Assembly (NCBI GenBank): GCA_016223105.1 | Contig: JACRPR010000040.1 | Span: forward strand, 18,940 to 82,939 | DNA length: 64,000 nucleotides | Origin: Chloroflexota bacterium | GTDB lineage: Bacteria > Chloroflexota > Anaerolineae > UBA4142 | Direction of reading: 5' to 3' | Shown here: piece after piece, positions 7,799 through 60,275 of the stretch | Position numbering within the stretch: the stretch's first letter is position 1 | Layout: each line of letters starts with the position of its first letter | Translations under genes and position numbers: made by a program | The notes under the pieces: generated by a model | Told to the model about the DNA's origin: nothing | Seen by the model: only the letters and a program-made list of their open reading frames with translations | The model's database searches: none

Positions 7799-8590
7799 GT
7801 GCCACAGCGGTCGAATCGCGAACGCAAAAAAATCGGCGCATTGCAACGCGCGTTCGATATTTTGAATTTGTTCGACGCGCAAACAAAAGAGCTCGGCAAC
7901 ACGGACATTGCACGCGCCGTGCAATTGCACCCGAGCACAGTCGCCGGGTTGATTCACACGCTCGAAGTGAACGGCTATCTCGCGCAAAATCCGGCGACGC
8001 GCAAATACCGGCTCGGACTCAAACTCGTCGAGCGCGCGGCGGTTGCGCTGAATCATCTCGATCTGCGCGAGATCGCGCAACCGTACCTGCGCGCCTTGCG
8101 CGATGAATGTAACGAGAGCGTCAACCTCGCGATCCAAGACGGCGCGGAGGTCGTGTATATCGAACAATTATTTGGCAGTCACGCGCTCGGCATTCGTTCC
8201 GAGATCGGCAAACGCGCGGCATTGCACAGCACCGCGCTCGGCAAAGCGATCCTGGCATGGCGCGCGCCCAAACCTACGCAAGAATTTCTCAAAACGTACA
8301 AACTCACTGCGATCACGCCAAAAACGATCACGCGCCGTGATCAATTTTTGCGCGAGTTGACCCGGACGCGCGCACACGGGTTTGCGCTTGACGACGAAGA
8401 AAATGAAATCGGCGGGCGCTGTATTGCCGCGCCGATATTCGACGCGCGCGGCGCGCCGATTGCGGCGGTCAGTATTGCGGTGCCGATTCAACGCTTCCCC
8501 GATAAAGTGGTGCCACGTCTCGGCGCGCGTGTACGTAAAGTCGCACACGCGATTTCGCAACAACTTGGTTATGCGCCCAAATCGTTTTAG
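7799..8590 (+). CDS. IclR family transcriptional regulator (KdgR-like by context)
   Basis: GTG start preceded by AGGAGG. N-terminal wHTH ('LQRAFDILNLF...ELGNTDIARAVQLHPSTVAGL') and a C-terminal IclR effector domain. It precedes the KDG operon. Confidence 0.9.
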   Translation: MPQRSNRERKKIGALQRAFDILNLFDAQTKELGNTDIARAVQLHPSTVAGLIHTLEVNGYLAQNPATRKYRLGLKLVERAAVALNHLDLREIAQPYLRALRDECNESVNLAIQDGAEVVYIEQLFGSHALGIRSEIGKRAALHSTALGKAILAWRAPKPTQEFLKTYKLTAITPKTITRRDQFLRELTRTRAHGFALDDEENEIGGRCIAAPIFDARGAPIAAVSIAVPIQRFPDKVVPRLGARVRKVAHAISQQLGYAPKSF

Positions 8591-8668
8591 AGATTGGAGA
8601 TTAGAGATTGGAGATTGGAAGGCAGAATCTAATTTCCAACATCCAATTTCCCAACCGAAGGAGAAGTA

Positions 8669-9587: not shown

Positions 9588-9628
9588 CGTGATGCGTGAT
9601 GCGTGAATTTTCACGCATCACGCATCAC
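9588..9628. repeat. Family-E hairpin
   Basis: CGTGATGCGTGATGCGTGAATTTTCACGCATCACGCATCAC, a near-perfect hairpin just upstream of kduD. A related copy lies at 27701-27740 and a half copy at 21250-21265. Confidence 0.8.
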
Positions 9629-9648: not shown

Positions 9649-10413
9649 ATGATCCTCGAACAATTCAATCTCACCGGCAAAGTCGCGCTTGTTACCGGCG
9701 CGGCGCAGGGGCTGGGACAAGGAATGGCGCTCGGTCTCGCGGAAGCGGGCGCGGACATTTGCGCGCTGGATCGTTGCAACAGCGACGAAACCGGCGATCT
9801 GGTTACGCAACGCGGGCGACGTTTCTCGCAGTTGTGCGTAGATTTGCGCGCCGGATCCGTCGCGGATTTGCAAGATGCGGTCGCAATGACCGTGCGCGCG
9901 TTGGGACGCGTGGATATTTTGGTGAACAATGCCGGGATCATTCGCCGCGCGCCCGCGCTCGAATTTTCCGAGCAAGACTGGGACGATGTGTTGCAGATCA
10001 ATTTGCGCGCGGTCTTTTTCCTGTCGCAAGCCGCGGCGCGCGAGATGATGAAACAAGGCGGCGGCAAAATCATCAACATCGCTTCGATGTTGTCCTTTCA
10101 AGGCGGCATCATCGTGCCGTCGTACACCGCGGCAAAGAGCGGCGTCGCCGGAATTACGCGCGCGCTCGCGAACGAGTGGGCGAAACACAACATCAACGTC
10201 AACGCGATCGCGCCTGGCTATATGGCAACCGAAAACACCGCGCCGATTCGCGCGGACGCGCAACGCAGTGAATCCATTCTCGCGCGCATTCCCGCCGGAC
10301 GCTGGGGCGAGCCGCGCGATCTGCAAGGCGTCGTTGTGTTCCTCGCGTCGCGCGCGTCCGATTATTTGCACGGCGCGATTGTGCCGGTGGATGGGGGATG
10401 GCTCGCGCGCTAG
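9649..10413 (+). CDS. kduD: 2-dehydro-3-deoxy-D-gluconate 5-dehydrogenase (SDR)
   Basis: 'LTGKVALVTGAAQGLG', 'NNAG' and 'YTAAKSGVAGITRALANEW' are SDR motifs with a KduD-like overall pattern. Operon context supports the call. Confidence 0.8.
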   Translation: MILEQFNLTGKVALVTGAAQGLGQGMALGLAEAGADICALDRCNSDETGDLVTQRGRRFSQLCVDLRAGSVADLQDAVAMTVRALGRVDILVNNAGIIRRAPALEFSEQDWDDVLQINLRAVFFLSQAAAREMMKQGGGKIINIASMLSFQGGIIVPSYTAAKSGVAGITRALANEWAKHNINVNAIAPGYMATENTAPIRADAQRSESILARIPAGRWGEPRDLQGVVVFLASRASDYLHGAIVPVDGGWLAR

Positions 10414-11134: not shown

Positions 11135-11209
11135 GTTTGTTAGTTGGATAGTTGCATAGTTGCCTGCAAACTATCCAACTATGCAACTATTCAACTTGGA
11201 GAAATGACG

Positions 11210-19853: not shown

Positions 19854-20432
19854 ATGTTGGATTCGTCTCTCCGCGATTGGGTCAACCTTCAATCGCATCA
19901 AAACATCAACACCTGTTTCACCTGCGCGAAATGCACGGCGGGCTGTCCGGTCGCGTTCGCGATGGAGTTTGGTCCGCATCGCATTTTGCAAATGGTGCGC
20001 TTTGGAATGAACGACGCCGCGCTCGCGAGCCGCGATATTTGGTTGTGCGCGGGATGCGAAACCTGCGCGACGCGTTGCCCGAACGATGTGGACGTTGCCG
20101 CGCTGATGGACGCGTTGCGCCAAATTTCGCTTGCCAAAAAATCGCGCAACCCCGCGCGCGATATCGCCGACTTTCATCGCGCGTACTTGCTCCTCATCAA
20201 ATTGTTCGGACGCATGCACGAGGCATCGCTGATGATTCTGGTCAAACTGATCACGCGTGATCTGCTCGCGGATATGGGCGCGGGTGTGCAGTTGGTTTTG
20301 AAAGGAAAAATTCCGATTGTGCCGGAACGCATTCGTGGGACAGGTGAAGTGAGCAGAATGTTGAACGCGGAAAAACGTAATTCGCGCGAAGCGTTCGTAA
20401 TTCGTAATTCGCAATTCGGAAATCAAAAATGA
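19854..20432 (+). CDS. hdrC: Heterodisulfide reductase subunit C (HdrC-like)
   Basis: RBS GGAGGA. Two ferredoxin-like motifs, 'CFTCAKCTAGCP' and 'CAGCETCATRCP'. Its stop overlaps the hdrB start (ATGA). Confidence 0.85.
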   Translation: MLDSSLRDWVNLQSHQNINTCFTCAKCTAGCPVAFAMEFGPHRILQMVRFGMNDAALASRDIWLCAGCETCATRCPNDVDVAALMDALRQISLAKKSRNPARDIADFHRAYLLLIKLFGRMHEASLMILVKLITRDLLADMGAGVQLVLKGKIPIVPERIRGTGEVSRMLNAEKRNSREAFVIRNSQFGNQK

Positions 20433-21241
20433 AATTCGCCTATTACCCAGGATGCAGTTTGCACGCGACCGGGTTGGAGTACGACCAATCCACCCGCGCC
20501 GCGTTGTGCGCGCTCGATGTCGAACTCGACGAACTGCGCGATTGGAATTGTTGCGGCGCGTCGTCCGCACACGCACTCGATGCGAACGCCGCGATCCTTC
20601 TCGCCGCGCGCAATCTCGCGCTCGCGCAACGCGCGCATCGCGATGTGATCGCGCCGTGCGCCGCGTGTTTCAATCGGCTCAAAGTTGCGGAGCATATTCT
20701 CAAAACCGATTCGACGCGCCGCGTCGAAATCGAACGCGCGCTCGATTTTTATTACGCCGACGCGACCCAGATTCTCAATCCGATTGACCTGGTCGTGAAT
20801 CACATCGGTTTGCCACGCGTGCGCGCCGCCGTGAAAAATCCGCTCACCGATTTGCGCGTCGTCCCACACATCACGCAATTCGACGATCCCGAACATCCGC
20901 GCGCGCTCGATCAACTCCTCTCCGCCATTGGCGCACAGCCATGCGAGTGGGCGGATGCGACGCATTGTTGCGGCGGCTCGCTCTCGCTGACGCGCGCGAA
21001 CATCGTCATCAAACTCGTGGATGACCTGGTCGCGCACGCGCGCGATGTCAACGCGCAAGCCATCGTTACCGCGTGCCCGCTTTGCCAAATCAATCTCGAA
21101 ATGCGTCAGACGCGCGCGGACAAATTGCCGATTGTGTATTTCACCGAATTGATGGGACTCGCGTTCGGATTAAAAGAATCGCGCAAGTGGTGGGGCAAGC
21201 ATCTCATCAATCCGCGCGAATTGGTGAGCCGGTATCAGTGA
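20429..21241 (+). CDS. hdrB: Heterodisulfide reductase subunit B (HdrB-like, two CCG domains)
   Basis: 'YYPGCSL...NCCGAS...APCAACF' and '...HCCGGSL...TACPLCQ' are duplicated CCG (Cys-rich) motifs. Confidence 0.85.
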   Translation: MKFAYYPGCSLHATGLEYDQSTRAALCALDVELDELRDWNCCGASSAHALDANAAILLAARNLALAQRAHRDVIAPCAACFNRLKVAEHILKTDSTRRVEIERALDFYYADATQILNPIDLVVNHIGLPRVRAAVKNPLTDLRVVPHITQFDDPEHPRALDQLLSAIGAQPCEWADATHCCGGSLSLTRANIVIKLVDDLVAHARDVNAQAIVTACPLCQINLEMRQTRADKLPIVYFTELMGLAFGLKESRKWWGKHLINPRELVSRYQ

Positions 21242-21271: not shown

Positions 21272-21354
21272 GTCATTGCGAGGAGCGATTTTTGCGACGA
21301 AGCAATCTCCGAACGGTGCGTGGGGATTGCTTCGCACAGAACGCTCGCAATGAC
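21272..21354. repeat. Family-A palindromic element, copy 3
   Basis: GTCATTGCGAGGAGCGATTTTTGCGACGAAGCAATCTCC...GGGGATTGCTTCGCACAGAACGCTCGCAATGAC, between hdrB and the next gene. Confidence 0.85.
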
Positions 21355-21366: not shown

Positions 21367-22758
21367 ATGTTAAACGATTCAACTAACCAACTATCCAACC
21401 ATCCAACTAACCAACCAACCGGCGCAGTCCTGGTTGTCGGCGCGGGGATTGGCGGAATGCAAGCATCGCTCGATCTCGCGGACGCCGGTTTTAAGGTGTA
21501 CTTGCTCGACCGCGCGCCCGCGATTGGCGGACGAATGGCGCAACTCGACAAAACATTTCCGACGAACGATTGCGCGATGTGCATCATGTCGCCGAAACTC
21601 GTCGAGACCGGACGCCATCTCAACATCGAAATCATCACGACCGCCGATTTGGAAAAAGTTGAAGGCGAGCCGGGAAATTTCACCGCGACGATTCGCGAGC
21701 ATCCGCGTTACGTTGATCTTTCGAAATGCACCGGGTGCGGCGATTGCGCGGCGAAATGTCCGATCACTTTGCCGGATGAATTTAATACCGGGATGAGCGC
21801 GCGCAAAGCGATTTACAAATTGTATCCGCAAGCGATTCCGAACGCGTTCGCGATTGAAAAGCGCGGCATCGCGCCGTGTCGCGACGCGTGCCCCGCGCAT
21901 CAACGCGCGATGGGTTATATCGCGCTGATTCGCGAACGCCGGTTCGCCGACGCGTATCGCGTGATCAAAGAAGACAATCCGTTTCCCTCGATTTGCGGAC
22001 GCGTCTGCATCGCGAAATGCGAGACCGCGTGCAATCGCGCGCAGTTCGATGCGCCGGTTGCGATTCGCGATTTGAAACGTTTCGTCGCGGATTGGGCGTG
22101 GAATCAGTCAGCAGTCAACAGTCAACAGTCAACAGTCGTCAGTCAACAGTCGTCAGTCAATTCCCAATTACCACTTACCAATTACCAGGTCGCAATCATT
22201 GGCTCCGGTCCCGCCGGGATGACCTGCGCGGCAGACCTGGTGCGACAAGGTTATGGCGTTACCGTGTTCGAAGCGTTGCCGGTCGCGGGCGGAATGATGC
22301 GCGTCGGCGTGCCGAATTTTCGCTTGCCGTACGACCGCGTGCAAAAAGAGATTGACGACATTCTCGCGCTTGGCGTCGAACTAAAATTGAACACGCGCAT
22401 TGATGATGTCGAAAAACTTTTCGTGGATGGATTCGATGCGGTCTTCTTCGCGGCTGGTTCACATCGCGCGCGCAAACTGCCGATCCCCAACGCGAATCAT
22501 CCCGACGCGATCCTCTCGTTGGATTTGTTGCGCGATACGAGTTTGGGAATTTCAGAATCAGGGAATCCCCAATCTGAAATCTGCAATTTGAAATCTAAAG
22601 TTGCGAATCGCCGCGTCCTGGTTTTGGGCGGCGGCGCAGTCGCGGTGGACGCGGCGACGACCGCGCGACGACTCGGCGCGTTCAGCGTTGCGATGGCTTG
22701 CCTCGACGCGCGCGCGACAATGCCCGCGACAAAAGAGGATTTGGCGCAAGCTGACTAA
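21367..22758 (+). CDS. HdrL-like giant fusion, N-terminal part (QmoA-like HdrA FAD domain, ferredoxin, NfnB/GltD Fe-S and first Rossmann domain)
   Basis: ATG at 21367 lies after the repeat. 'VVGAGIGGMQASLDLADAGFKVYLLDR...GGRMAQLDKTFPTNDCAMCIMSPK' is HdrA-type. 'CTGCGDCAAKCP'. 'CRDACPA...NPFPSICGRVCIAKCETACNR' and 'VAIIGSGPAGMTCAADL' are GltD/NfnB-type. It ends at an in-frame TAA (22756-22758) in the middle of a conserved domain. Confidence 0.8.
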   Translation: MLNDSTNQLSNHPTNQPTGAVLVVGAGIGGMQASLDLADAGFKVYLLDRAPAIGGRMAQLDKTFPTNDCAMCIMSPKLVETGRHLNIEIITTADLEKVEGEPGNFTATIREHPRYVDLSKCTGCGDCAAKCPITLPDEFNTGMSARKAIYKLYPQAIPNAFAIEKRGIAPCRDACPAHQRAMGYIALIRERRFADAYRVIKEDNPFPSICGRVCIAKCETACNRAQFDAPVAIRDLKRFVADWAWNQSAVNSQQSTVVSQQSSVNSQLPLTNYQVAIIGSGPAGMTCAADLVRQGYGVTVFEALPVAGGMMRVGVPNFRLPYDRVQKEIDDILALGVELKLNTRIDDVEKLFVDGFDAVFFAAGSHRARKLPIPNANHPDAILSLDLLRDTSLGISESGNPQSEICNLKSKVANRRVLVLGGGAVAVDAATTARRLGAFSVAMACLDARATMPATKEDLAQAD

Positions 22759-23013
22759 GAGGGCATTGCGATTTATCCGTCGCGATCGTTCAAACGCGTC
22801 GTCGTCGAAAATGGAAAAATCACCGGCGTCGAATGTGTCAACGTCAAATCGTTCGCGTTCGATAAAGATGGACGACTTGCGCTCGAAACACATCCGAACA
22901 CCGAACACCTTCTCGAATGTGACACGGTAATTTTCGCGATTGGGCAAGGTCCCGATCTCGCGCCGATTCAAAATTCGCAAGGCGCGCAACAAACGCCGCG
23001 GCGCACGCTCGCG

Positions 23014-25968
23014 GTGAATCCCGAAACGCTTGCAACCGGGCGACCTGGTTTGTTCGCCGGCGGCGACGCGGTTACCGGCGTTGGTTTCATCATTGACGCG
23101 ATTGCCGCCGGACATCGCGCCGCAAATTCGATTCAGACATATCTCAGTCGTCGGTCAACAGTCAACAGTCAACAGTTACCAATTACCAATTCAGTCGTGA
23201 AATTATCGCGCGACGAAATCACCGCGCGCGTTGAAACCGGCAAGGTAACAAAACGCGAGCGTGTCGAACGGAAATGGATTGATGCCGGGACGCGCGTGCA
23301 CTCGTTCGAAGAATTTGCATTGCCGATGTCGGAAGAGGAAGCGGTCGCGGAGGCGCAACGCTGTCTCGAATGTGGTGTGTGTTCCGAGTGCCTCGAATGT
23401 GTGTACGCGTGTCGCGCTGGCGCGGTCAATCACGCGGCGATTGAAGCGACGCGTGAACTGCAAGTCGGCGCGGTGATTCTCACACCTGGTGTCGAGCCGA
23501 TTGATTTACGTGCCCCTTCGACTTCGCTCAGGGTGGGCTATCGTCCCGAGTACGGTTACGGGCGTTACCCGAACGTCGTTACGTCGCTCGAGTTCGAACG
23601 CTTTTTGTCCGCAACCGGTCCGACCCAGGGTGTTGTCGCGCGACCGAGCGATGGCGCGCATCCGAAAAAAATCGCGTGGATTCAATGCGTTGGTTCGCGC
23701 GATTGCGCGCGCGACCAGGGCTATTGCTCTTCGATTTGTTGTATGTACGCGACGAAAGAAGCGGTCATTGCGCGCGAGCATAGCGCGGAGATCGCGCCGA
23801 CAATTTTTTATCTCGACATTCGCGCGTACGGCAAAGAGTTCGACCGCTACATCGAGCGCGCGAAAAACCAGGGCGTCCGTTACATTCGCTCGATGGTCAG
23901 CGCGATTGAACCTGGTGCGAACGGAAATTTGAATGTGCGTTACGCGCTCGACGATGGACCCAAGACCGAAGAATTTGAAATGGTCGTGTTGTCGGTCGGC
24001 GTGAAACCGAGCGCGGAAACGCGCGCGCTCGCGCAACGCCTCGGCATCGCGTTGAATGAGTACGGTTTCACGGAATCCATTTCGTTCGCGCCAACCGCGA
24101 CCTCGCGACCTGGTATTTTTGTCGCGGGCACATTCCGCGAACCGAAAGATATTCCAGAGACGGTCATCGAAGCATCCGCCGCCGCCGCGTGCGCGTCGCA
24201 ATTGCTCGCGTCCGCGCGTGGAACGCTCGCGCGCGTCAAAACGTATCCGCCCGAACGCGACGTGGCGGAAGAAGAACCGCGCGTCGGCGTGTTCGTGTGT
24301 CATTGCGGCATCAACATTGGCGGAGTCGTGCGCGTGCCGGAAGTCGTCGAGTTTGCAAAGACGTTGCCGGGTGTCGTGTACGCGGAACACAATCTCTACA
24401 CCTGTTCGCAAGATACGCAAGCGCGTATCAAGGCGCGCATCGAAGAAAATCATCTGAATCGCGTCGTCGTCGCGAGTTGCACGCCGCGCACGCACGAGCC
24501 CTTGTTCCAGGATACATTGCGCGAAGCGGGATTGAACCCTCACCTGTTCGAACTCGCGAATATCCGCGAGCAAGACGCGTGGGTGCATCGCGGCGATCGC
24601 GACGCGGCGACGCGCAAAGCGCAAGACCTGGTCGCGATGATGGTCGCGCGCGCGCAACACGACTCGCCGTTGTATCGCCTCGTGTTCGACATCAATCCGC
24701 GCGCGCTCGTGATCGGCGGCGGATTTGCCGGAATGACTGCGGCGTTGACGATTGCGGAACAGGGGCACGATGTTTTCCTGGTCGAGCGCGACGCCGAGCT
24801 GGGCGGACACGCGCGGCACATTCAGTTTGCAGTGAACGGTGAACAGTCAACAGTCAACTGTGTGGATGTGCAAGCAATGTTGCACGACACGATTGCGCGT
24901 GTGATGGAACATCCGCGCGTGCACGTTTACACGCGCGCAGAAATCAATGATGTTGCCGGTTATGTCGGACGATTTGTTTCGCGGATTCACCTCGCGGATG
25001 AAGACGCGAACATCGCGCTCGATCACGGCGCAATCGTCGTCGCGACCGGCGCGCGCGCCGCGACGCCGCGCGAGTATTTGTATGGCATGGACAACCGCGT
25101 GATCACTCAGCAAGATTTGGAATCGCTGATCATCAATCGAAAATCAGAAATCGAAAATCAAAAATCAATCGTGATGATTCAATGCGTCGGCTCACGCGAC
25201 GAATCGCGCGCGTACTGCTCGCGCATTTGCTGTCAACAGGCAATCAAGAACGCGCTCAAGTTGAAGGAACTGAATCCGCAAACGCAAATCGTCGTGTTGT
25301 ATCGCGACCTGCGCGCGTACGGCTTCAAAGAAGATTTGTATCGCCGCGCGCGCGAGCAAGGTGTTTTGTTTCTGCCGTACGAATTGGATGCCAAGCCGAA
25401 CGTCGCAATCGCGAATGACAAACTGCGCGTTACTGCGCGCGCCGCGTTCGCTCCGAATGGAAAAATCGAACTCGAACCCGACCTGGTTGTGTTGAGCGCG
25501 GGCATCGAGCCGAACGATAACGCGCCGCTCGCGCAACTCTTAAAAGTGCCGCTGACCCAGGATGGATTTTTTCTCGAAGCGCACGCGAAACTGCGCCCGC
25601 TCGATTTCGCCGCCGATGGAATTTTTCTCGCCGGACTCGCGCACTCGCCGCGCGCGCTCGACGAATCGATCGCGCAAGCGCAAGGCGCGGCGATTCGCGC
25701 CGTCGCGCTCTTGTCACAAAAACAACGCGAAGCCGTCGCGACCGTCGCGACCGTGAACGAACGCCTGTGCGCGGGATGCGGCTTGTGTGTCGAGATGTGT
25801 CCGTACGGCGCGCGCGCGCTCGACGCGGACGCGCACATCGCGCAAGTGAACGCGGCGCTGTGCCAGGGTTGCGGCGCGTGCGTAACCGCGTGTCCGAACG
25901 GCGCATCGCAACAACGCGCGTTCGAAATGCCGCAAGTGTTTGCGATGATTGAAAACGCAGTCGCGTAA
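23014..25968 (+). CDS. HdrL-like giant fusion, C-terminal part (end of NfnB/GltD domain, HdrA middle region, complete second HdrA)
   Basis: Same frame as 21367..22758. Homology is continuous from codon 22759 ('EGIAIYP...DTVIFAIGQ...GLFAGGDAVTG'). No ATG/GTG/TTG occurs in frame before the GTG at 23014. 'QCVGSRD...YCSSICCMY', 'VFVCHCGINI', 'ASCTPRTHE', and a terminal 2x[4Fe-4S] ('CAGCGLCVEMCP', 'CQGCGACVTACP'). Confidence 0.8.
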   Translation: MNPETLATGRPGLFAGGDAVTGVGFIIDAIAAGHRAANSIQTYLSRRSTVNSQQLPITNSVVKLSRDEITARVETGKVTKRERVERKWIDAGTRVHSFEEFALPMSEEEAVAEAQRCLECGVCSECLECVYACRAGAVNHAAIEATRELQVGAVILTPGVEPIDLRAPSTSLRVGYRPEYGYGRYPNVVTSLEFERFLSATGPTQGVVARPSDGAHPKKIAWIQCVGSRDCARDQGYCSSICCMYATKEAVIAREHSAEIAPTIFYLDIRAYGKEFDRYIERAKNQGVRYIRSMVSAIEPGANGNLNVRYALDDGPKTEEFEMVVLSVGVKPSAETRALAQRLGIALNEYGFTESISFAPTATSRPGIFVAGTFREPKDIPETVIEASAAAACASQLLASARGTLARVKTYPPERDVAEEEPRVGVFVCHCGINIGGVVRVPEVVEFAKTLPGVVYAEHNLYTCSQDTQARIKARIEENHLNRVVVASCTPRTHEPLFQDTLREAGLNPHLFELANIREQDAWVHRGDRDAATRKAQDLVAMMVARAQHDSPLYRLVFDINPRALVIGGGFAGMTAALTIAEQGHDVFLVERDAELGGHARHIQFAVNGEQSTVNCVDVQAMLHDTIARVMEHPRVHVYTRAEINDVAGYVGRFVSRIHLADEDANIALDHGAIVVATGARAATPREYLYGMDNRVITQQDLESLIINRKSEIENQKSIVMIQCVGSRDESRAYCSRICCQQAIKNALKLKELNPQTQIVVLYRDLRAYGFKEDLYRRAREQGVLFLPYELDAKPNVAIANDKLRVTARAAFAPNGKIELEPDLVVLSAGIEPNDNAPLAQLLKVPLTQDGFFLEAHAKLRPLDFAADGIFLAGLAHSPRALDESIAQAQGAAIRAVALLSQKQREAVATVATVNERLCAGCGLCVEMCPYGARALDADAHIAQVNAALCQGCGACVTACPNGASQQRAFEMPQVFAMIENAVA

Positions 25969-25988
25969 AACGTAAAATGGAGTACGCA

Positions 25989-26405
25989 ATGTCGGACAAT
26001 AATCACGAACCTCGCATCGTCGCGTTTCTGTGTAATTGGTGCACGTACACCGGCGCGGATTTAGCCGGCACATCGCGTCTGCAATATCCGCCGAACGTTC
26101 GCATCATTCGATTGATGTGTAGTGGCGCGGTGGATCCGGTGTATGTGTTAAAGCCACTGCTCGACGGCGCGGATGGCGTGTTGATTGGCGGCTGTCATCC
26201 CGGCGATTGTCATTATCAATCCGGGAATTACAAAGCGCGCCGGCGTTTCGCGGTTTTGCAAGAAACGCTCGACGAACTGGGTTTCGATAAAGACCGTGTG
26301 TGGTTGCGCTGGATTAGCGCGAGCGAAGGCGCGCAATTCGCGGACACAATTCGAGAAATGACCGCGATGTTGAAAAGCAAGTTGGATAGTGCGATAGTTG
26401 GTTAG
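25989..26405 (+). CDS. MvhD/FlpD-like (methyl-viologen-reducing hydrogenase delta subunit family)
   Basis: 'EPRIVAFLCNWCTYTGADLAG...IRLMCSGAVDP...GADGVLIGGCHPGDCHY' is the MvhD signature. ATG at 25989 is preceded by GGAG; the alternative ATG is at 25977. Confidence 0.85.
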   Translation: MSDNNHEPRIVAFLCNWCTYTGADLAGTSRLQYPPNVRIIRLMCSGAVDPVYVLKPLLDGADGVLIGGCHPGDCHYQSGNYKARRRFAVLQETLDELGFDKDRVWLRWISASEGAQFADTIREMTAMLKSKLDSAIVG

Positions 26406-26483
26406 TTGGTTAGTTGCCTAGTCGCGATTGATGGCAACTATCAAACTATCAAACCATACAACTATTCAACTAGGAAACAAACG

Positions 26484-26981: not shown

Positions 26982-27017
26982 AAGAATCGTAAATCGAAAA
27001 TCGAAAATGGAGTTGTG

Positions 27018-28875: not shown

Positions 28876-29964
28876 ATGACAACTCGAATGATGTTGAATG
28901 TGAAAAACAATGACACACTCGACACGGTGCGCGATTTTTTGAAATCGCTGTTGGAATTGCGCGTTGTGGAAATGTTGCTCGTGCCGCTCGAAGTGCCGAC
29001 CGCCGACCGCGTAACGCCGATTCTGGTGCAAGACCCGCAAGACCTGAACACGGCGAACCCGCTCGCGCCGGTGATGCGCGTCAACACCGCGGCGGTCATT
29101 GCGCGTTTGCAACGCGGCGACGGCGCGCATCGCATCGGCGCGGTTCTGCGTCCGTGCGAATTGCGCGCGACGATTGAACTCGCCAAGTACGGGCGCGTCA
29201 ATCTCGACCGGCTGATGCTCATCGGCATTGATTGTATGGGCACGTACGAGTCGAACGATTACGCGCAAATCGCGCGCGCCTCCACGCGCAATCAATCGCC
29301 GACCGATGAAATGTTGCGCTGGACGCGGCAAGGTCCGATCGCGCCGTATCGTTTGCGAAACGCGTGCCAAATGTGCGAACAGTTCATCCCCGAAAATGCC
29401 GACATCGCGATTGACCTGGTCGGCATGAATGTGCGCGAGCGTTTGATGATCGAAGCGCGCGATGATCTCGCGGAAAATTTGCATTTGCCGGTCGGCGATG
29501 TGAGCGGACGCGATAAAGCGGTGGCGCGTTTGCATTTGATTCGCCATCATCGCCGCGAAAAAGCGACGACCGACGCGATGCAAATGTTGAAAGATATTCC
29601 GGCATTGCTGGGTCTCATCGCGCCGTGCACGGCGTGCGCGGAATGTGTCGAGTCGTGCCCGTTCTGCGATACAAACGCGTTCACGCCCAAGCCCGCGCAA
29701 GAAGCGCACACCGATCGTCTGCGCGATTGGCCCTCGGGCGAAACCTGGTCGGCGCGTGGACACGCGCTTGGACCGATTGGCGATTTGATCGCGTGGGGAC
29801 GCCGCGCCGCGTCGTGCGTGCAATGCGGAATGTGCGAATCGGCTTGCCCGCGCGATGTGCCGCTCACCGCGTTGCAAAGCGTCCTGGGTCGGCGCGTGCA
29901 AGAAGAATTTCATTACATCCCAGGTCGAAGCGTTACCGAAAAATTGCCGTGGGCGGTGGCATAA
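28876..29964 (+). CDS. FrhB/FdhB-family (F420 hydrogenase/dehydrogenase beta-like) Fe-S protein, paralog 1
   Basis: 'RPCELRATIEL...LIGIDCMGT', 'C..C..FIPENADIAIDLVG', and C-terminal 'CTACAECVESCP...CVQCGMCESACP'. RBS GGAGG. Confidence 0.55.
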   Translation: MTTRMMLNVKNNDTLDTVRDFLKSLLELRVVEMLLVPLEVPTADRVTPILVQDPQDLNTANPLAPVMRVNTAAVIARLQRGDGAHRIGAVLRPCELRATIELAKYGRVNLDRLMLIGIDCMGTYESNDYAQIARASTRNQSPTDEMLRWTRQGPIAPYRLRNACQMCEQFIPENADIAIDLVGMNVRERLMIEARDDLAENLHLPVGDVSGRDKAVARLHLIRHHRREKATTDAMQMLKDIPALLGLIAPCTACAECVESCPFCDTNAFTPKPAQEAHTDRLRDWPSGETWSARGHALGPIGDLIAWGRRAASCVQCGMCESACPRDVPLTALQSVLGRRVQEEFHYIPGRSVTEKLPWAVA

Positions 29965-30054
29965 ATTCGTAATTCTTAATTCTAAATTCGTAATTCAAAA
30001 TCGCGCGAATTGAATTGCGAATTCCGAATTCCGAATTAAGAATTTGAGGTCGCT

Positions 30055-31278: not shown

Positions 31279-31338
31279 AATATTCCCGAACAGTGTGATC
31301 GTTAAATCGAAAATCAAAAATCGGCAATTGGATGAACT

Positions 31339-32682
31339 ATGCCAAACAGCGCACTCGTAATCGGCGGCGGTATCGCCGGAATTCAAACCGCGCTCGATAT
31401 CGCGGATGCCGGGTTTCATGTGTATCTCGTCGAAAAAGAACCGAGCGTCGGCGGGCGAATGGCGCAACTCGACAAAACATTTCCGACGCTCGATTGTTCC
31501 GCGTGCATCCTCACGCCGAAAATGGTGGATGTCGCGCGCCATCCCAACATCGAACTCATTACGTACTCTGAAGTTTGCAATATCACAAATGGCGCAAGTG
31601 ACTTTTACGCGACAATCAAAAAGAAACCGCGTTACGTTGACACCAACAAATGTACCGGTTGCGGCAGTTGTGCGGAGGCGTGTCGTTTGAAGGGACGCGT
31701 GACCGATACGTTCAACGCGGGGATGGGCAAACGTTCCGCGATCTATGTTCCGTTTCCGCAAGCCGTTCCGCTCAAGTACACCGTGGATCCGACGCAATGC
31801 GTTTATCTCACGCGCGGCGTGTGCGGCAAAACGTTTTTGTGCAAAGACGCGTGCAAAGCGGACGCGATTGATTTCACGCAAAAAGAAGAAATCGTCGAGT
31901 TGAATGTCGGCGCGATTGTCGTCGCGACCGGGTTCGATCCGTTCGACGCCGCACTCAAACCGGAACTGGGTTACGGAATTTATCCGAACGTCATCACGTC
32001 TCTGCAATTTGAACGCTTGTCGTCCGCGTCTGGTCCGACTGCCGGAAAAATTTTGTTGAACGGCAAAGAACCGCGCGAGGTCGTGTTCGTGCAATGCGTC
32101 GGCTCGCGCGATGTGACGACCGGCAATCTGTATTGCTCGCGCGTTTGCTGTATGATTACCGCGAAGCACGCGCACCTGGTCAAAGATAAAATTCATGACG
32201 CGAACGTTACGATTTTTTACGCGGACATGCGCGCGTTCGGCAAAGGGTTTGAAGAATTTTACGACCGCGTGCGCGCGGAAGGCGTCAACTATCGGCGCGG
32301 ATACGTTTCCGAAATTTACGCCGCCGGCGGGCAGACGCCCAAACGCGATGGCAAACTTGTCGTGCGTTCCGAAGACACGCTCATCGGCAAGCCCATCGAA
32401 ACGACTGCCGATCTGGTCGTGTTGAGCGTCGGTCTCGTGCCGCGCGTCGAAACGAACACGCTCGCGCAGATTTTACAGCTCACAAATTCTAGCGACGGTT
32501 TTCTGGCGGAGGCGCATCCGAAAATGTTGCCGGTGGACACAAAAATAAACGGTGTTTACCTCGCGGGCGTCGCGCAAGGGCCGAAAGATATTCCCGACGC
32601 GGTCGCGCACGCGAAGGCGGCGGCGAGCGCGGCGATTGTGCGCTTACGCAGTCGTCAGTCGTCAGTCGCCAGTCAACAGTGA
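31339..32682 (+). CDS. QmoA-like short HdrA (FAD domain only)
   Basis: 'VIGGGIAGIQTALDIADAGFHVYLVEKEPSVGGRMAQLDKTFPTLDCSACILTPKM', 'CTGCGSCAEAC' and 'VQCVGSRD...YCSRVCCM'. It lacks the N-terminal CHCG domain and the C-terminal ferredoxin. Confidence 0.85.
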   Translation: MPNSALVIGGGIAGIQTALDIADAGFHVYLVEKEPSVGGRMAQLDKTFPTLDCSACILTPKMVDVARHPNIELITYSEVCNITNGASDFYATIKKKPRYVDTNKCTGCGSCAEACRLKGRVTDTFNAGMGKRSAIYVPFPQAVPLKYTVDPTQCVYLTRGVCGKTFLCKDACKADAIDFTQKEEIVELNVGAIVVATGFDPFDAALKPELGYGIYPNVITSLQFERLSSASGPTAGKILLNGKEPREVVFVQCVGSRDVTTGNLYCSRVCCMITAKHAHLVKDKIHDANVTIFYADMRAFGKGFEEFYDRVRAEGVNYRRGYVSEIYAAGGQTPKRDGKLVVRSEDTLIGKPIETTADLVVLSVGLVPRVETNTLAQILQLTNSSDGFLAEAHPKMLPVDTKINGVYLAGVAQGPKDIPDAVAHAKAAASAAIVRLRSRQSSVASQQ

Positions 32683-32716
32683 ACAGTGAACTGTTGACTG
32701 ACTACTTGGAGTTAAA

Positions 32717-33915: not shown

Positions 33916-33983
33916 ATCACTTGCGTTCCGCATAATCGGATTTTGCGCGCACACCAAATCATAAATCGAAAATCGAAAATGCT

Positions 33984-36887: not shown

Positions 36888-36961
36888 GTCATTGCGAGCG
36901 AAGCGAAGCAATCCCCAATTTGCTACGCGGAGATTGCTTCGCATAAACCGCTCGCAATGAC
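36888..36961. repeat. Family-A palindromic element, copy 4
   Basis: GTCATTGCGAGCGAAGCGAAGCAATCCCCAA...GGAGATTGCTTCGCATAAACCGCTCGCAATGAC. Confidence 0.9.
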
Positions 36962-40874: not shown

Positions 40875-40944
40875 GTCATTGCGAGCGAAGCGAAGCAATC
40901 CCCGCGCGACGGATTGGAGATTGCTTCACTTCGCTCGCAATGAC
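40875..40944. repeat. Family-A palindromic element, copy 5
   Basis: GTCATTGCGAGCGAAGCGAAGCAATCCCCGCG...GGAGATTGCTTCACTTCGCTCGCAATGAC, immediately after the atpI stop. Confidence 0.9.
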
Positions 40945-41217: not shown

Positions 41218-41433
41218 ATGGAAACAGGTTTGCTCGCGATTGGCGCGGGACTCGCAGTGGGCTTGGCGGCGATTGGCACCGGACTCGCGCAAGGGCGCAT
41301 CGGTTCGGCGGGCGCGGGCGCGATTGCCGAAAAGCCGGAACTCGTCGGCACGATGATCATTTTGCTCGCGATTCCCGAAACGATGATCATCCTGGGATTC
41401 GCGGTCGCCGCGATCATTTTGCTCGTCAAGTAA
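41218..41433 (+). CDS. atpK: V/A-type ATPase proteolipid subunit K (single hairpin, 71 aa)
   Basis: RBS GGGAGG. Two Gly/Ala-rich helices. 'GLAQGRIG' in helix 1 and the carboxylate motif 'AIPETMIILG' in helix 2. Confidence 0.85.
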   Translation: METGLLAIGAGLAVGLAAIGTGLAQGRIGSAGAGAIAEKPELVGTMIILLAIPETMIILGFAVAAIILLVK

Positions 41434-41510
41434 TTTCAAATTTCATATTTCAAATTGCAAATTAACAATCTGAAATTTGAAATTTGAAATCTGAAATTGT
41501 TGGAGGATGC

Positions 41511-42101
41511 GTGCCTCTCGCAAATATCCTGCGCGCGATGCAAACGCAAGCCGATGCGGAGATCGCGCGCATCACGGACGCGGCGGAGTGCGAAGCGGAG
41601 CAGTTGATCGCCGAAGCCGAAACACAGGCGACCGCGATTCGCGCGCGGCATCGCGCGCGTGTCGAGCCACTGCTCGCGACGGAAGCCGCGGCGATTTTGA
41701 ATCGCGCGAAACTCGGCGCGTTGCGCGAGTTGGCGAACGCGCGCGAACACTTGTTGAACGACGCGTTCGCGCAGGCGCACGCGCAACTCGCGTCCATGCG
41801 CGGGTCGAACCACTACGCCGCGATTTTTCGCGCGCTCGCGCGCGAGGCGATTCAGAATTTGAACGGCGATCTCGTCGCGCGCGTCGATCCGCGCGATGTC
41901 GCGCTCGCGCACGCGACCTTGACCGCGCTCAACGCGAATGTCGCGATTGAGACCGCGCCGATTCCGCTCGGCGGACTCGAACTGCACACGCGCGACGGGC
42001 GCATCGTGATCGTCAACACGTTGTCCGCGCGGCTCGAACGCGCGCGCGAAACGTTGCGCGGTCCGGTCGCGCGGATTCTGGTGGGAGAGATTGAGAGATA
42101 A
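41511..42101 (+). CDS. atpE: V/A-type ATPase subunit E
   Basis: GTG at 41511 follows GGAGG. N-terminal long helix ('AEIARITDAAECEAEQLIAEAETQA') and a C-terminal globular part. Operon position supports the call. Confidence 0.75.
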   Translation: MPLANILRAMQTQADAEIARITDAAECEAEQLIAEAETQATAIRARHRARVEPLLATEAAAILNRAKLGALRELANAREHLLNDAFAQAHAQLASMRGSNHYAAIFRALAREAIQNLNGDLVARVDPRDVALAHATLTALNANVAIETAPIPLGGLELHTRDGRIVIVNTLSARLERARETLRGPVARILVGEIER

Positions 42102-42144
42102 AGAGATTCGCAGAGCGTCTCTCAATCTCTTAATCTCTTGAATT

Positions 42145-43227: not shown

Positions 43228-43553
43228 CGATCATCACGAATCCAACGCTCGCGCCCGGCTTTGCGCTCGCCGGTGTCCAAGTGATCGCCGCGGAGAGCGA
43301 TGCGGTCGCGCGGCGCGCGCTCGCGCGGTTGCTCGACGAAGGTGAAGCCGGGATCATTGCGCTCGACGCGCCGTACTTGGCTTCGCTCGATTACGCGACC
43401 GCGCGGCGGATTGATGAACTCGTCAAGCCGGTCGTCGTCGCTCTGCCGGTCGGCGCGCACGTTTTGCCGGAGCAACGGCGCAGTCGCCAAATCGCGGAAC
43501 TGATTCGCCGCGCGATTGGAATTCGGATGACGTTTCGGGAGAATGAACAGTGA
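43215..43553 (+). CDS. atpF: V/A-type ATPase subunit F
   Basis: 112 aa with a GTG start overlapping the atpC end. 'GFALAGV' pattern and operon position support the call. Confidence 0.75.
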   Translation: MARLTIITNPTLAPGFALAGVQVIAAESDAVARRALARLLDEGEAGIIALDAPYLASLDYATARRIDELVKPVVVALPVGAHVLPEQRRSRQIAELIRRAIGIRMTFRENEQ

Positions 43554-43618
43554 ACAGTGGGCAGTGAACAGTGAACCGTTGACTGACGACTGTTGACTGT
43601 TCACTGCAATGAGGGAAT

Positions 43619-45746: not shown

Positions 45747-45822
45747 AGCAATCGGATTTATGATTTTGAAACGCGCACAGTTCAAATCAGAAATCATAAA
45801 TCAGAAATCCTAAATCTGAAAT

Positions 45823-47220
45823 ATGGATACGCAAACTTCTCTTCTCACGAAGCATTACCGCACGCTCTCGTACATTTCCGGTCCGCTCGTGTTTGTCGAG
45901 CGCGTCGCGAATGTGGGGTACGGCGAAATCGTTACGATCACCGGCGCGGATGGCGCGCCGCGCGCGGGGCAAGTGCTCGAAGTGAATCGCGAGCGCGCGG
46001 TCGTCCAGGTTTTCACCGGCACGCGCGGACTCGACGCGGACACGACGCGCGCGCATTTCACCGGCAACGTCGCGCGGCTCGGCGTCGCGATGGAAATGCT
46101 GGGACGCACGCTCAACGGCGCGGGGCAACCGCTCGACGGCGGACCCGCGGTGATCCCGGAAAAATTTTTGGATATTCACGGCGAACCGATCAATCCGTAC
46201 GCGCGCGATCATCCTTCCGAATTTATTCAAACCGGGATTTCCGCGATTGATGGATTGAACACGCTCGTGCGCGGACAAAAACTGCCAATCTTTTCCGGTT
46301 ATGGTTTACCCGCGAACGAAATCGCCGCGCAAATCGCGATGCACGCGCGCGTGCTGGGCACATCCGAAAAATTCGCGGTCGTGTTCGCCGCGCTCGGCAT
46401 CACGCATCGCGAAGCATCGTTTTTCATCCAGCGTTTCGAGACGAGCGGCGCGCTCGACCGCACCGTGTTGTTTTTGAATCTCGCGGACGATCCGACGATT
46501 GAACGACTCATCACGCCGCGCGCCGCGCTGACGACTGCCGAGTATCTCGCATTTGATCAAGGTTTGCATGTGCTGGTGATCATTACCGATATGACGAATT
46601 ATTGCGAGGCATTGCGCGAGGTCGCAAACGCGCGCGAGCAAGTGCCGGGGCGGCGCGGTTATCCCGGCGATCTCTACACCGATCTCGCGACGATCTACGA
46701 ACGCGCGGGACGGATCAAAGACAAACCCGGTTCGATCACGCAGTTGATCATTTTGAATATGCCGGACGACGACATCACGCATCCGATTCCTGATCTCACC
46801 GGGTACATCACCGAAGGGCAAATCGTCTTGTCGCGCGATTTGCACCGGCGCGGCATTTATCCGCCGATTGATCCTCTGCCGTGTTTGTCGCGCTTGATGA
46901 ACGCGGGCATCGGCGCGGGTAAAACGCGCGCGGATCATCGCGGCGTCGCGGATCAACTCTATTCGTTTTACGCGCAAGGGCGCGATCTGCGCCGGCTCGT
47001 CGCGATCATCGGCGAAGCCGGGTTGGGCGCGGCGGATCGCAAGTATCTCGCGTTCGCGGATCGGTTCGAACAAGAATTTATCGGGCAGGGCGACACGAAT
47101 CGCGCGATTGAAGACACGTTGAACCTGGGTTGGGAATTATTGCGCGCGTTTCCGGCGAATGAGTTGAAGCGGATTAAGCGGGAACATATCGTAAAGTATG
47201 GGAAGGGAGAGAGGGGATGA
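45823..47220 (+). CDS. atpB: V/A-type ATPase subunit B
   Basis: 465 aa. 'GQKLPIFSG', '[12 protein letters not shown]' and '[21 protein letters not shown]' are B-subunit motifs. Confidence 0.95.
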
Positions 47221-47452
47221 GAGGGCGTAGAGGGTAGAGAAGGTAGAGAGGGTAAAGAGGGCTTGCGCCTTTTTCGCCTTCTCTGCCTTTTATCACTTCT
47301 CATGCCTTCTACGCCTTCTTCACCCTTCTGGGTTTTGGTTCTTTGGGAATGATTGGGGTAGCATAGCCCCTTGTGGGCGTAGGAATCGGAAAAGACGCGC
47401 ACAAGGCGCTATGCTACACGACCAACCCCACTCAAAACTAAAGAACCTGGGT
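47221..47452. repeat. Two long imperfect hairpins filling the atpB-atpD spacer
   Basis: A purine-rich arm GAGGGCGTAGAGGGTAGAGAAGGTAGAGAGGG faces a pyrimidine-rich arm (47221-47330). A second hairpin pairs GGTTCTTTGGGAATGATTGGGGTAGCATAGC with GCTATGCTACACGACCAACCCCACTCAAAACTAAAGAACC (47337-47450). Confidence 0.7.
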
Positions 47453-47458: not shown

Positions 47459-48103
47459 ATGGAAAACACAAGCCCGACGCGCATGGAATTGCTCGCGGTC
47501 AAAGCGCAAATCGGTTTGGCGGAACAAGGGCGCGATCTGCTGAAAGAAAAACGCAACGCGCTGATGAAAGAATTTTTAAAGATCGCGGATGCCGTGATGC
47601 GCGATAGCGATGAGTTGGAGCAAGCGGTCGCGGATGCGCGGCACGCGCTCGCGCGCGCGGAGGCGTTGGATGGCGCGGAAGCGGTGCGCTCCGCATCGTT
47701 CGCCGCGCGGCACGAATTGGCGCTCACGGTCGAGGGCGCGTTCGTGATGGGTGTGCCGGTGCCAATCATCGAAACGACGAGCGCGGCGCGCGGCGCATTG
47801 GATCGCGGGTACAGTTTGCCGGGAACGTCCGCGCGGATTGACCTGGTTGCGGAACGGTTTGAAGAAGCGGTGGATGTGCTGATCGAACTCGCGGCGAGCG
47901 AATTGCGTTTGCGGCGTTTGGCGAACGAGATTCAAAAAACGAGTCGGCGTGTGAACGCGTTGGAAAATATCCTACTGCCGCGTTTGTCCACGCGCCGCGC
48001 GTACATCGAAATGGTGTTGGAAGAACGCGCGCGCGAAGATTTGTTTCGCTTGAAAACGGTCAAGCGCGCGATTCAGCGCAAGCGAACAACAAACGCCACC
48101 TGA
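47459..48103 (+). CDS. atpD: V/A-type ATPase subunit D
   Basis: 'PTRMELLAVKAQIGLAEQGRDLLKEKRNAL' and the C-terminal 'LENILLPRL...ERAREDLFRLK' are typical of subunit D. ATG at 47459. Confidence 0.9.
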   Translation: MENTSPTRMELLAVKAQIGLAEQGRDLLKEKRNALMKEFLKIADAVMRDSDELEQAVADARHALARAEALDGAEAVRSASFAARHELALTVEGAFVMGVPVPIIETTSAARGALDRGYSLPGTSARIDLVAERFEEAVDVLIELAASELRLRRLANEIQKTSRRVNALENILLPRLSTRRAYIEMVLEERAREDLFRLKTVKRAIQRKRTTNAT

Positions 48104-48131
48104 GCGAAACCGGTCAGGTGGCGTTCGTTTT
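48091..48131. terminator. Hairpin terminator after the ATPase operon
   Basis: AACGCCACCTGA...TCAGGTGGCGTT (12-bp stem that includes the atpD stop) followed by CGTTTTC. It sits between convergent genes. Confidence 0.6.
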
Positions 48132-48277
48132 CACGCCAGCAACAGCGCGAGCGCGATGATGATTCCGATGATCGCGACAATCGCGAGCACGATCAGCGCA
48201 CAGCCCTTGACGCCGTACTTTTCGTACAGTTCGCCAATGTCCATAATCGTGTCGAGCAAATCTCCGAGTGCGCCCAT
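48131..48277 (-). CDS. Small membrane protein (48 aa), uncertain
   Basis: ATG at 48277 with strong RBS AAGGAGA. The C-terminal hydrophobic helix is 'ALIVLAIVAIIGIIIALALLLA'. It overlaps the 3' end of ORF 48193..48651 in another frame. Confidence 0.45.
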   Translation of the reverse strand: MGALGDLLDTIMDIGELYEKYGVKGCALIVLAIVAIIGIIIALALLLA

Positions 48278-48651: not shown

Positions 48652-48700
48652 ATTTCCCCCTTTCGCGGTTTTCGTGTTTTCGCGTTTTCGTGTTTCGCGG

Positions 48701-60176: not shown

Positions 60177-60275
60177 GTCATTGCGAGCGGTTTTTGCGAA
60201 GCAATCCCCGACTTGGTCGATCCGGACTTGCAACGCGGAGATTGCTTCGTCGCAAAAACCGCTCCTCGCAATGAC
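60177..60275. repeat. Family-A palindromic element, copy 8 (long form)
   Basis: GTCATTGCGAGCGGTTTTTGCGAAGCAATCCCC...GGAGATTGCTTCGTCGCAAAAACCGCTCCTCGCAATGAC. Confidence 0.9.

Follow-up and report, generated by a model that had tools for sequence, protein, structure and literature searches.

Heptanucleotides form the most abundant class of long simple sequence repeats (long SSRs, or LSSRs) in many bacterial genomes. In the surveys of Mrazek and co-workers (2007), as quoted in PMC4679880 and PMC4692102, they are found preferentially in non-coding DNA, coding regions are avoided by units of a length not divisible by three, and polymerase slippage is proposed as the cause of the arrays. The short tandemly repeated repetitive (STRR) sequences of cyanobacteria and the TAACTGA repeats of Beggiatoaceae are mostly intergenic, rare at the periphery of open reading frames (ORFs) and constrained by stop codons (PMC4679880). 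In marine Beggiatoaceae, the TAACTGA repeats lie mostly 5' of start codons and a minority overlap ORF ends, and MacGregor (2015) foresaw that repeats could be tolerated between the modules of modular proteins (PMC4679880). In this study we analysed five heptamer arrays that lie in frame inside one giant gene, a fusion of an HdrA-like, an NfnB(GltD)-like and a second HdrA-like unit, in a 64,000-nucleotide (64-kb) stretch of contig JACRPR010000040.1 from a Chloroflexota bacterium, hereafter called the window.

In Escherichia coli K1, the O-acetyltransferase gene neuO carries a coding heptanucleotide variable number of tandem repeats (VNTR, 5'-AAGACTC-3') that changes by strand slippage and gives the full-length protein only if the added length is divisible by three (PMC13001214). 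In Rickettsia, the palindromic elements (RPE) are intergenic-type repeats that have become fixed, in frame, within conserved proteins at places the fold can accommodate (PMC10969869). The five segments in the window are probably (we put the probability at roughly 0.68) heptanucleotide microsatellite arrays of the STRR/LSSR type, belonging to a genome-wide population and turning over under selection that holds them to five permissive loops.

In-frame heptamer arrays of the giant gene

Starting with the ATG at 21367, the giant gene is open in frame 1 as far as its terminal TAA at 25966-25968, except for one internal TAA. Its product begins with an HdrA-type flavin domain, followed by the GltD/NfnB-like module, the remainder of the first HdrA-like unit and a nearly complete second HdrA-like unit, with two C-terminal ferredoxin clusters. 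According to Pfam and Protein Data Bank (PDB) matches, the GltD/NfnB-like module consists of a Fer4_20 domain and then FAD and NAD(P) Rossmann folds. The PDB matches of the whole protein were HdrA (5odc/8rvu) and NfnB/GltD-type chains, and the NCBIfam matches for the region were all under the curated cutoff.

Arrays were called with Tandem Repeats Finder (TRF). All five sites proved to be head-to-tail arrays with a period of 7 nt, not 21 nt, in 2.3-8 copies with 78-100% matches, and their units fall into the families CAGTCAA, CAATTAC/TTACCAA, AATCTGA and AAATCRA. Their positions are given in Table 1. Site 1 encodes the linker from the helix of the Fer4_20 domain to the first Rossmann strand (VAIIGSGPAG), and site 2 is the loop preceding the NADPH Rossmann strand RVLVLGGG. 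Site 3 follows immediately on the final helix of the NfnB-like module, AGHRAANSIQTYL. Site 4 forms a loop in the second HdrA-like module, at the place of DKTFPTNDCSMC in canonical HdrA, and site 5 encodes the loop preceding the strand IVMIQCVGSRD. The peptide SQQSTVVSQQSSVNSQLPLTNYQ is an example of a product that spans an array. A sixth array, made of octamers, encodes the N-terminal tail; close relatives have similar tails of variable length. The first-pass annotation, made from the letters of the window, had quoted five in-frame segments, and all of them were present in frame 1 as quoted, its start at 22103 being trivially one base off the codon boundary. It had also placed sites 1 and 3 on either side of the FAD/NAD(P) part of the GltD-like module and a TAA within the bracketed stretch. 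Both statements agreed with our results, since Pyr_redox_2 begins at residue 273 in Pfam, the last helix of the module immediately precedes site 3, and the internal TAA lies between the two sites.

Table 1. Positions of the giant gene, its arrays and the comparison elements in the window
Feature	Position	Strand	Description
Giant gene	21367-25968	+	HdrA-like / NfnB(GltD)-like / second HdrA-like fusion of 1,533 codons; translation, Pfam, PDB and NCBIfam matches, full-length homologues
Site 1	22105-22187	+	(CAGTCAA)x8 at 22105-22160, then (CAATTAC)x4.3 at 22158-22187; TRF
Site 2	22545-22600	+	degenerate (GGGAATY)/(AATCTGA) array; (AATCTGA)x3.7 at 22571-22596 by TRF
Site 3	23152-23191	+	(CAGTCAA)x3.3, register GTCAACA at 23154-23176, then (TTACCAA)x2.3 at 23176-23191; TRF
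Site 4	24830-24862	+	(CAGTGAA/CAGTCAA)x4.7; TRF
Site 5	25135-25168	+	(AATCRAA)x4.9; TRF
Sixth array	21380-21420	+	octamer (CAACTAAC)x5 encoding the N-terminal tail STNQLSNHPTNQPT; TRF
In-frame TAA	22756-22758	+	Gln codon (CAA/CAG) in six close relatives, Glu in distant ones
Intergenic or gene-end array	32649-32700	+	comparator of the same unit family, (CAGTCGT)(CAGTGAA)...CTGTTGACTG; C-terminal tail and stop codon of gene 31339-32682
Intergenic inverted pair	43544-43606	+	(CAGTGAA)n/(GTTGACT)n hairpin; region 43540-43610 folds at -32 kcal/mol, z = -6.1
Intergenic hairpin	8590-8660	+	(GAGATTG)n...(CAATYTC)n; region 8586-8662 folds at -23 kcal/mol, z = -3.6
Intergenic array	26985-27008	+	(AATCGAA)n; ends 6 nt before a start codon
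MITE-like palindromic element, five copies	21272-21354, 36888-36961, 40875-40944, 50514-50587, 60177-60275		70-100 nt; terminal inverted repeats GTCATTGCGAG...CTCGCAATGAC

To place the arrays in the context of the window, two-unit words were counted with at most two mismatches and compared with dinucleotide-preserving shuffles. Words of CAGTCAA were observed 21 times (0.17 expected), of AAATCGA 19 times (3.1 expected), of TGAAATC 17 times (0.7 expected) and of TTACCAA 6 times (0.11 expected). Three of the four in-gene unit families also fill the intercistronic spacers of the window, far above the shuffle expectation, so that the repeats do occur in intergenic DNA elsewhere. The claim that the words are otherwise seen only between genes needs correction in part: other copies are indeed intergenic, but some run into ORF ends as C-terminal tails, and TTACCAA has no intergenic copy in the window, where only the related (TTCGTAA)n at 20394-20418 was found. 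TTACCAA is also present in the linkers of the relatives L087 and L102 (L-numbers denote relatives' loci, and W the window's own copy of the giant gene). There are 23 low-GC period-7 arrays in the window, 16 of them intergenic or overlapping ORF ends and one near an ORF end. The other six, counted as TRF rows, lie more than 90 nt inside an ORF, and all six are in the giant gene. Since this gene makes up ~8% of the coding DNA of the window, rough arithmetic gives p ~3e-6 for the chance of five independent sites falling within it. Heptamer arrays deep in an ORF were thus confined to the giant gene in the 64 kb, and in relatives almost only to its orthologues.

Because three 7-nt units make 21 nt, a heptamer array reads as the same heptapeptide in all three frames. 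It is tolerable only if none of its three phases contains a stop codon. All coding arrays were found in the stop-free orientation, giving QSTVNSQ, QLPITNY and NQKSKIK/KSKIENR, whereas the opposite strand would give LTVDC*L, VIGNW*L and FDF*FLI with stops; between genes both orientations are present. Two units in the gene do contain TGA, namely AATCTGA at site 2 and CAGTGAA at site 4. Both sites escape an in-frame TGA because their arrays are short or imperfect enough, and at site 2 the sole unit with its TGA phase in frame reads TGC. The peptides encoded by the in-gene arrays are polar.

We examined the location of the arrays in the protein using an alignment of 68 sequences, in which the five sites coincide exactly with the five segments that vary most in length across the whole protein. 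Conservation was scored on 38 non-Chloroflexi orthologues only, in order to avoid circularity; all of these except L056 are without in-gene arrays. The mean conservation was 0.258 for array-encoded residues and 0.634 protein-wide, and no mean as low as this arose in 20,000 random placements of five length-matched segments. Gaps face 28 of the 86 array-encoded residues, and the others stand opposite poorly conserved residues. Loop lengths were measured from anchor to anchor, except at site 4, where the excess was taken from alignments. Site 1 is 31 aa long (median 19 in non-Chloroflexi orthologues), site 2 is 26 aa long (median 12), and site 4 exceeds the family by ~7 aa and the paralogue by 6 aa. 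Site 3, with 75 aa against medians of 72-79, has no net gain, and site 5, with 17 aa, equals the medians of 17-18.5 in all groups. Only sites 1, 2 and 4 are thus net insertions, and sites 3 and 5 are replaced loops of ordinary length, so scoring the segments as insertions succeeded for the former three and failed for the latter two. The site-5 segment had been reported as absent from the paralogous HdrA at 33984; this was not the case, as BLASTP aligns the loop with only a 2-residue gap and the paralogue is 2 aa shorter.

The mapping of the segments to surface loops was assessed with AlphaFold2 (AF2) models built with 63-row alignments. Site 1 was predicted as coil at residues 252-273, with a predicted local distance difference test score (pLDDT) <50 at 254-263. 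Sites 3 and 4 were also coil, with pLDDT <50 at residues 133-142 and 696-700 of the C-terminal model, respectively. Site 5 was a short loop with pLDDT ~79, and site 2 (pLDDT 65-73) was partly helical, with a short helix. The prediction of surface loops was therefore supported by coil and low pLDDT at sites 1, 3 and 4 and by loops at sites 2 and 5; in all, coil of low or moderate confidence was predicted at four of the five sites. An assembly artefact was rejected as an explanation of the arrays, because they are shorter than a read and orthologous arrays are present in independent assemblies.

Turnover among relatives and age of the fusion

Codon alignments were made with six syntenic relatives, L081-L086, of 76-80% amino acid identity. 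The units at a given site differ among them: CAACTTC, (GAGATTG)n+(CAATCTC)n, CAACCAT and (GGGATTG)n+(CAATCCC)n at site 1, GCAGCAG and CAGTCGC at site 4, and CGCAACA, GCAATCT and (AAATTCA)n+(AATTTGG)n at site 5. At site 3, (CAGTCAA)3 is common to W, L082 and L085. Among distant Chloroflexota metagenomic relatives, a heptamer-periodic stretch of at least 21 nt was found in 9 of 61 at site 1 and in 14 of 63 at site 2, again with varied units. The orthologous intercistronic spacers of the syntenic relatives contain heptamer hairpins too, made of other units.

The closest relative found was L087, with 88.4% nucleotide identity across the first 463 codons. Outside the linkers, W and L087 share 93% protein identity (dS 0.35, dN/dS 0.098), which demonstrates purifying selection on the rest of the gene. 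At site 1 the register is common to both, with eight CAGTCNN units each; the first of these show concerted differences (CAGTCAA in W, CAGTCGT in L087), and L087 has an additional 39-nt block of (CAATCTC) type. At site 2 L087 is shorter by 21 nt and has the units CAAT[A/T]AC where W has [C/A]AATCTG, with the register kept. The arrays thus diverge faster than their own flanks. Such unit-wise homogenisation together with in-frame indels fits the signature of slippage or unequal exchange in a microsatellite under reading-frame selection.

To determine the age of the fusion, 5.8 billion proteins were searched, giving 7,992 matches, and the following figures refer to the best 120. Nearly all of them are 1,449-1,591 aa long with 94-100% coverage, 14 at 73-78% identity and the others at 57-61%, and the fused architecture is present in all 120. 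When species-representative genomes were scanned, 80 loci with this architecture were recovered. They belong to Chloroflexota, Syntrophales/Thermodesulfobacteriota, Acidobacteriota, Bacillota, Thermoplasmatota and others, and the majority have no heptamer arrays at all. In-gene arrays were seen in no Acidobacteriota, Syntrophales or archaeal locus, and few loci outside Chloroflexota have flank arrays. Lineages with in-gene arrays mostly have flank arrays as well, the exceptions being L083 and L064, with in-gene arrays and none in the flanks.

These results bear on one of the two explanations offered by the first-pass annotation, namely that the arrays are leftover spacers which joined once-separate hdrA-like and nfnB-like genes. 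Such an origin might be suggested by sites 1 and 3 flanking the FAD/NAD(P) part of the NfnB-like module and by the occurrence of the same unit families in spacers. However, all listed homologues have the same fusion order and the same length of ~1,500 aa, including those of phyla without the repeats, and close relatives differ in their units at the same site. Moreover, sites 2, 4 and 5 are loops inside the NADPH-binding domain or the second HdrA-like flavin domain rather than fusion joints, and site 1 lies within the NfnB-like module, after the Fer4_20 domain in Pfam, and not at a joint. The check proposed for this idea, a search for relatives with separate genes and these words in the spacer, revealed none among the 120 listed homologues and the 80 genome loci. 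We therefore rejected the retained-spacer origin, which has almost no chance of being right, because the fusion is old, no split relative was seen and three of the sites are intradomain. The HdrA/NfnB-like/HdrA fusion is ancient, and the arrays neither created it nor mark its joints.

The other explanation, that the repeats actively insert into coding DNA and are tolerated as linkers, was largely upheld. The variable loops, the unit replacement and the in-frame indels speak for tolerance; active insertion fits less well, as the changes between W and L087 look like in-situ slippage and sites 3 and 5 are replacements. We accordingly modified this view. Arrays of 7-8-nt units, which would fill the intercistronic spacers throughout the genome of this Chloroflexota lineage, would last within the ancient fusion only at five loops or linkers that accept any length and sequence. 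There they would be translated as polar peptides with a 7-aa period and would turn over quickly, units being gained and lost and unit variants spreading along the array in a slippage-like concerted evolution. Selection on the enzyme would let an array pass under three conditions: a net length change that is a multiple of three, no sense-strand stop in the three phases and a hydrophilic peptide. Slippage would be the motor of this process, the peptides would be nearly neutral, and each loop would at some time have received a first array as its seed.

Points against the microsatellite reading and rival explanations

Several observations weigh against the view that the segments are microsatellite arrays remodelled in permissive loops. 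Sites 3 and 5 show no net insertion, and parts of sites 2 and 5 (NLKSKI, IxNxKS) resemble residues of array-free orthologues (NIKSKIANKR, LKNLKN). Homologous residues in array-free orthologues, which the first-pass annotation had named as evidence against its own idea, thus exist in part, at sites 2 and 5 only, and the word insertion is only partly apt because these sites partly align with loci in which TRF found no arrays. Copy-number slippage is suggested by differences between species only. In addition, the relatives contain in-frame inverted-array hairpins at site 1 of L082 (-35 kcal/mol, z = -7.6), site 1 of L086 (-56 kcal/mol, z = -6.1) and site 5 of L085 (-25 kcal/mol, z = -2.5), and L082 carries an element resembling a miniature inverted-repeat transposable element (MITE) in frame at sites 2 and 3 of the giant gene. 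In W, sites 1 and 3 both have the rare TTACCAA unit next after CAGTCAA, and TTACCAA is absent from the rest of the 64 kb. Finally, the internal TAA makes the production of the full-length giant protein uncertain.

The hairpins and the MITE-like element lead to the idea that pre-formed modules, either mobile or copied by recombination, enter permissive loops as selfish DNA, with slippage only remodelling them later. The in-frame hairpins of L082, L086 and L085 are built in the same way as the intergenic module at 8590-8660, and that module itself is read in frame at site 1 of L082 and L086. Together with the MITE-like element in relatives, they indicate insertion or copying of pre-formed modules, because simple slippage does not create them. 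L087 lacks, in the same spacer, the MITE-like copy that stands just 5' of the giant gene (21272-21354), another copy (50514-50587) is read in frame as VIASEAKQSPTSDAEIASQKPLAMT within the 1,057-aa restriction-modification/methyltransferase-like ORF 48701-51871, and the element is also found in L086 at 10147-10314. The CAGTCAA+TTACCAA composite at two sites of the gene and the 39-nt (CAATCTC)n block of L087, missing from W, point in the same direction. Since CAATCTC also ends both site 1 and site 3 in L085, the shared endings in W and L085 hint at copying between the two linkers. On the other hand, the five arrays of W are direct and show no significant fold, sites 1 and 3 giving folds no stronger than those of shuffled sequences (z = -0.9 and -1.4). 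Around the arrays neither target-site duplications nor terminal signatures were seen, and no transposase was linked to them. At sites 1 and 2, W and L087 differ without loss of register, in a manner resembling in-situ turnover. Taken together, insertion or conversion of pre-formed modules may have contributed, but module insertion appears rather unlikely as the main origin of the five segments. Somewhat less likely still is a broader view, in which array hairpins are a self-propagating repeat class of filamentous lineages (cyanobacteria, Beggiatoaceae and Anaerolineae-type Chloroflexota) that colonises spacers and permissive loops whole and generates linker-length diversity or frameshift switching, instead of being passive slippage debris.

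Two further explanations assign the arrays a role in the cell, and we found both improbable. In the first of these, the arrays would be kept for a function of their own, as tunable flexible tethers between redox modules or as mRNA pause, processing or protein-binding sites aiding cofactor insertion. Many Chloroflexota lineages have these five sites occupied, W and L085 agree over 23 nt in the (CAGTCAA)3 of site 3 despite a third-position identity of 0.56, and identical units stand just 5' of operon start codons, for which a regulatory role has been proposed in Nostoc and Beggiatoaceae (bioRxiv 10.1101/2022.06.06.494920; PMC4679880). However, even at 88% nucleotide identity a given site does not retain its unit sequence, its length or its fold, and the orthologues of other phyla work with short repeat-free loops. 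The identity at site 3 is not exceptional, because shared words of 17-40 nt are common along the whole gene. Nucleotide-level selection at this site, considered on account of the 23-nt identity, was weakened by such shared words of at least 17 nt and by the faster divergence of arrays than of flanks. Even more improbable are contingency loci, in which the gain or loss of one 7-nt unit would shift the frame and switch the enzyme off or on. Site 1 lies within an ORF and is made up of eight near-perfect units, array lengths differ between relatives in this lineage, and in the E. coli K1 example, NeuO, full-length translation needs a repeat number divisible by three (PMC13001214). But the window has five internal arrays in a core energy-metabolism enzyme rather than one 5'-proximal array in a surface-modification gene, and most of its arrays are short and imperfect, with 75-94% matches, so that slippage would be damped. 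All differences seen between relatives keep the frame (39 nt and 21 nt), and an off-phase allele was seen in none of ~170 loci. We also rejected the CAGTCAA/TTACCAA composites as recombination sites for excision of the NfnB-like module: they lie at a distance of 1,047 nt, which keeps the frame in one register, but the module was missing from none of the relatives.

As for the internal TAA, dN/dS was 0.10 upstream of it and 0.10-0.14 downstream, the same as between intact relatives. L087 has an in-frame TAA of its own seven codons upstream (about 1735-1740 of L087) and a sense codon at the position of the TAA in W. It is unlikely to be coincidence that two close relatives carry distinct stops inside a span of eight codons in a gene under purifying selection. 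The TAA could be a tolerated split or a readthrough site, or it could reflect recent decay or two recent nonsense mutations; between it and GTG 23014 there is no canonical in-frame start codon. Reassignment of TAA was rejected, as TAA is also the terminal stop of the giant gene and ORFs elsewhere in the window are of normal length. Separately, we observed that the giant gene of L082 terminates ~70 codons early, its C-terminal ferredoxin part being a separate 77-aa ORF 4 bases downstream (12091-12329 of L082).

The gene content around the giant gene is that of an Hdr/Mvh-type anaerobic cluster, with hdrC- and hdrB-like genes at 19854-21241 before it and an mvhD-like gene at 25977-26405 after it. 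Outside the giant gene, arrays are typically inverted pairs that fold as hairpins. Many intercistronic spacers consist of two inverted arrays of 7-, 8- or 9-nt units (8590-8660, 9588-9628, 11141-11196, 26380-26472, 29964-30044, 41432-41498, 42085-42139, 43544-43606 and 47204-47319), and both of those that were folded gave strong hairpins, which could serve as terminators, mRNA stabilisers or processing sites. Arrays similar to the one at 26985-27008 were found at 33963-33980, 31304-31322 and 45784-45822, those at 33963 and 45784 just before start codons. At ORF ends, arrays supply C-terminal tails and stops (32649-32691, 20394-20418 and 41432-41498, for the genes 31339-32682, 19854-20432 and 41436-42125 on the minus strand, respectively); the tails read ...RSRQSSVASQQ* in gene 31339-32682 and ...NNFRFQISNFRLLICNLKYEI* in gene 41436-42125. 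Rfam gave no match anywhere in the window at the gathering threshold, and a literature search with the terminal repeat strings of the MITE-like element gave only unrelated papers. The GC content falls to 0.46 at 48000-50000 (0.55-0.61 elsewhere), over ORF 48701-51871 on the minus strand, and this stretch is possibly foreign DNA. Two ORFs contain long-period tandem repeats: 58869-60038 on the minus strand at 59392-59840 (42-nt period x8.3, with 30- and 60-nt sub-repeats) and 55483-56763 at 56468-56599 (periods of 18/36/54 nt). These are triplet-compatible protein repeats of another kind than the heptamers.

Comparison with known repeat systems

The arrays show how non-triplet simple repeats can survive in a conserved and strongly constrained enzyme, by way of loops that accept any sequence, a stop-free orientation and length changes in multiples of three. 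They account for much of the linker hypervariability of a widespread Hdr/Nfn-type fusion in Chloroflexota and extend STRR-like heptamer arrays, including a unit known from Calothrix, to another phylum; existing knowledge of Hdr biochemistry is unchanged by them. In Calothrix (L167, GCA_014696435.1), CAGTCAA is the unit of a ~16-copy intergenic array at 349-460, which is called there as a spurious 78-aa ORF. CAACAGT, the same unit in another register, is STRR3. A query of (QSTVNSQ)n matched 'hypothetical proteins' of 40-86 aa, mostly from Calothrix, Microcoleus, Nostoc and Tychonema. The many such entries of filamentous cyanobacteria in public databases are no more than translated (CAGTCAA)n arrays. 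Annotators should therefore regard array segments as neither fusion scars nor domain boundaries, and small QSTVNSQ-type proteins as translated repeats.

A limited literature search found no paper describing heptamer arrays in Chloroflexi. The locus presents known ingredients in a new host phylum and in a new configuration, at several internal sites of one conserved enzyme and with comparative evidence of turnover. Like the cyanobacterial STRR sequences of Calothrix and Nostoc/Anabaena, the arrays are head-to-tail 7-nt units at many loci, mostly non-coding and often near start codons or gene ends. Unlike them, they reside in a Chloroflexota (Anaerolineae-like) host, the closest named full-length homologues of the giant protein coming from Chloroflexota/Anaerolineae metagenome-assembled genomes; they are short (2-10 units), belong to many unit families, often form inverted hairpin pairs and stand in frame inside a conserved enzyme. 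With the TAACTGA repeats of Beggiatoaceae they share a mainly intergenic location, a position before start codons and some copies at ORF ends. Those repeats, however, have one dominant unit, stops in all frames of one orientation and almost no internal coding copies, whereas here there are many units, five internal in-frame sites and evidence of turnover.

As in NeuO, a 7-nt array inside a gene keeps the frame, the indels between W and L087 being 39 and 21 nt. NeuO differs in having one long 5'-proximal array of 3-53 units that acts as an on/off switch in a phage-borne surface-modification gene, while the window has five short imperfect internal arrays, and an N-terminal octamer array, in a housekeeping redox enzyme. 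The RPE resemble the present arrays as intergenic-type repeats in frame at fold-compatible loops, and the MITE-like element of the window behaves likewise. In contrast to the RPE, which are ~150-bp palindromes encoding a conserved peptide in many unrelated genes, the five segments of W are non-palindromic microsatellites in one gene in 64 kb. With regard to the long-SSR surveys, in which units not a multiple of three avoid coding DNA, the heptamers of this lineage differ by persisting there, through a frame-independent heptapeptide and a stop-free orientation.

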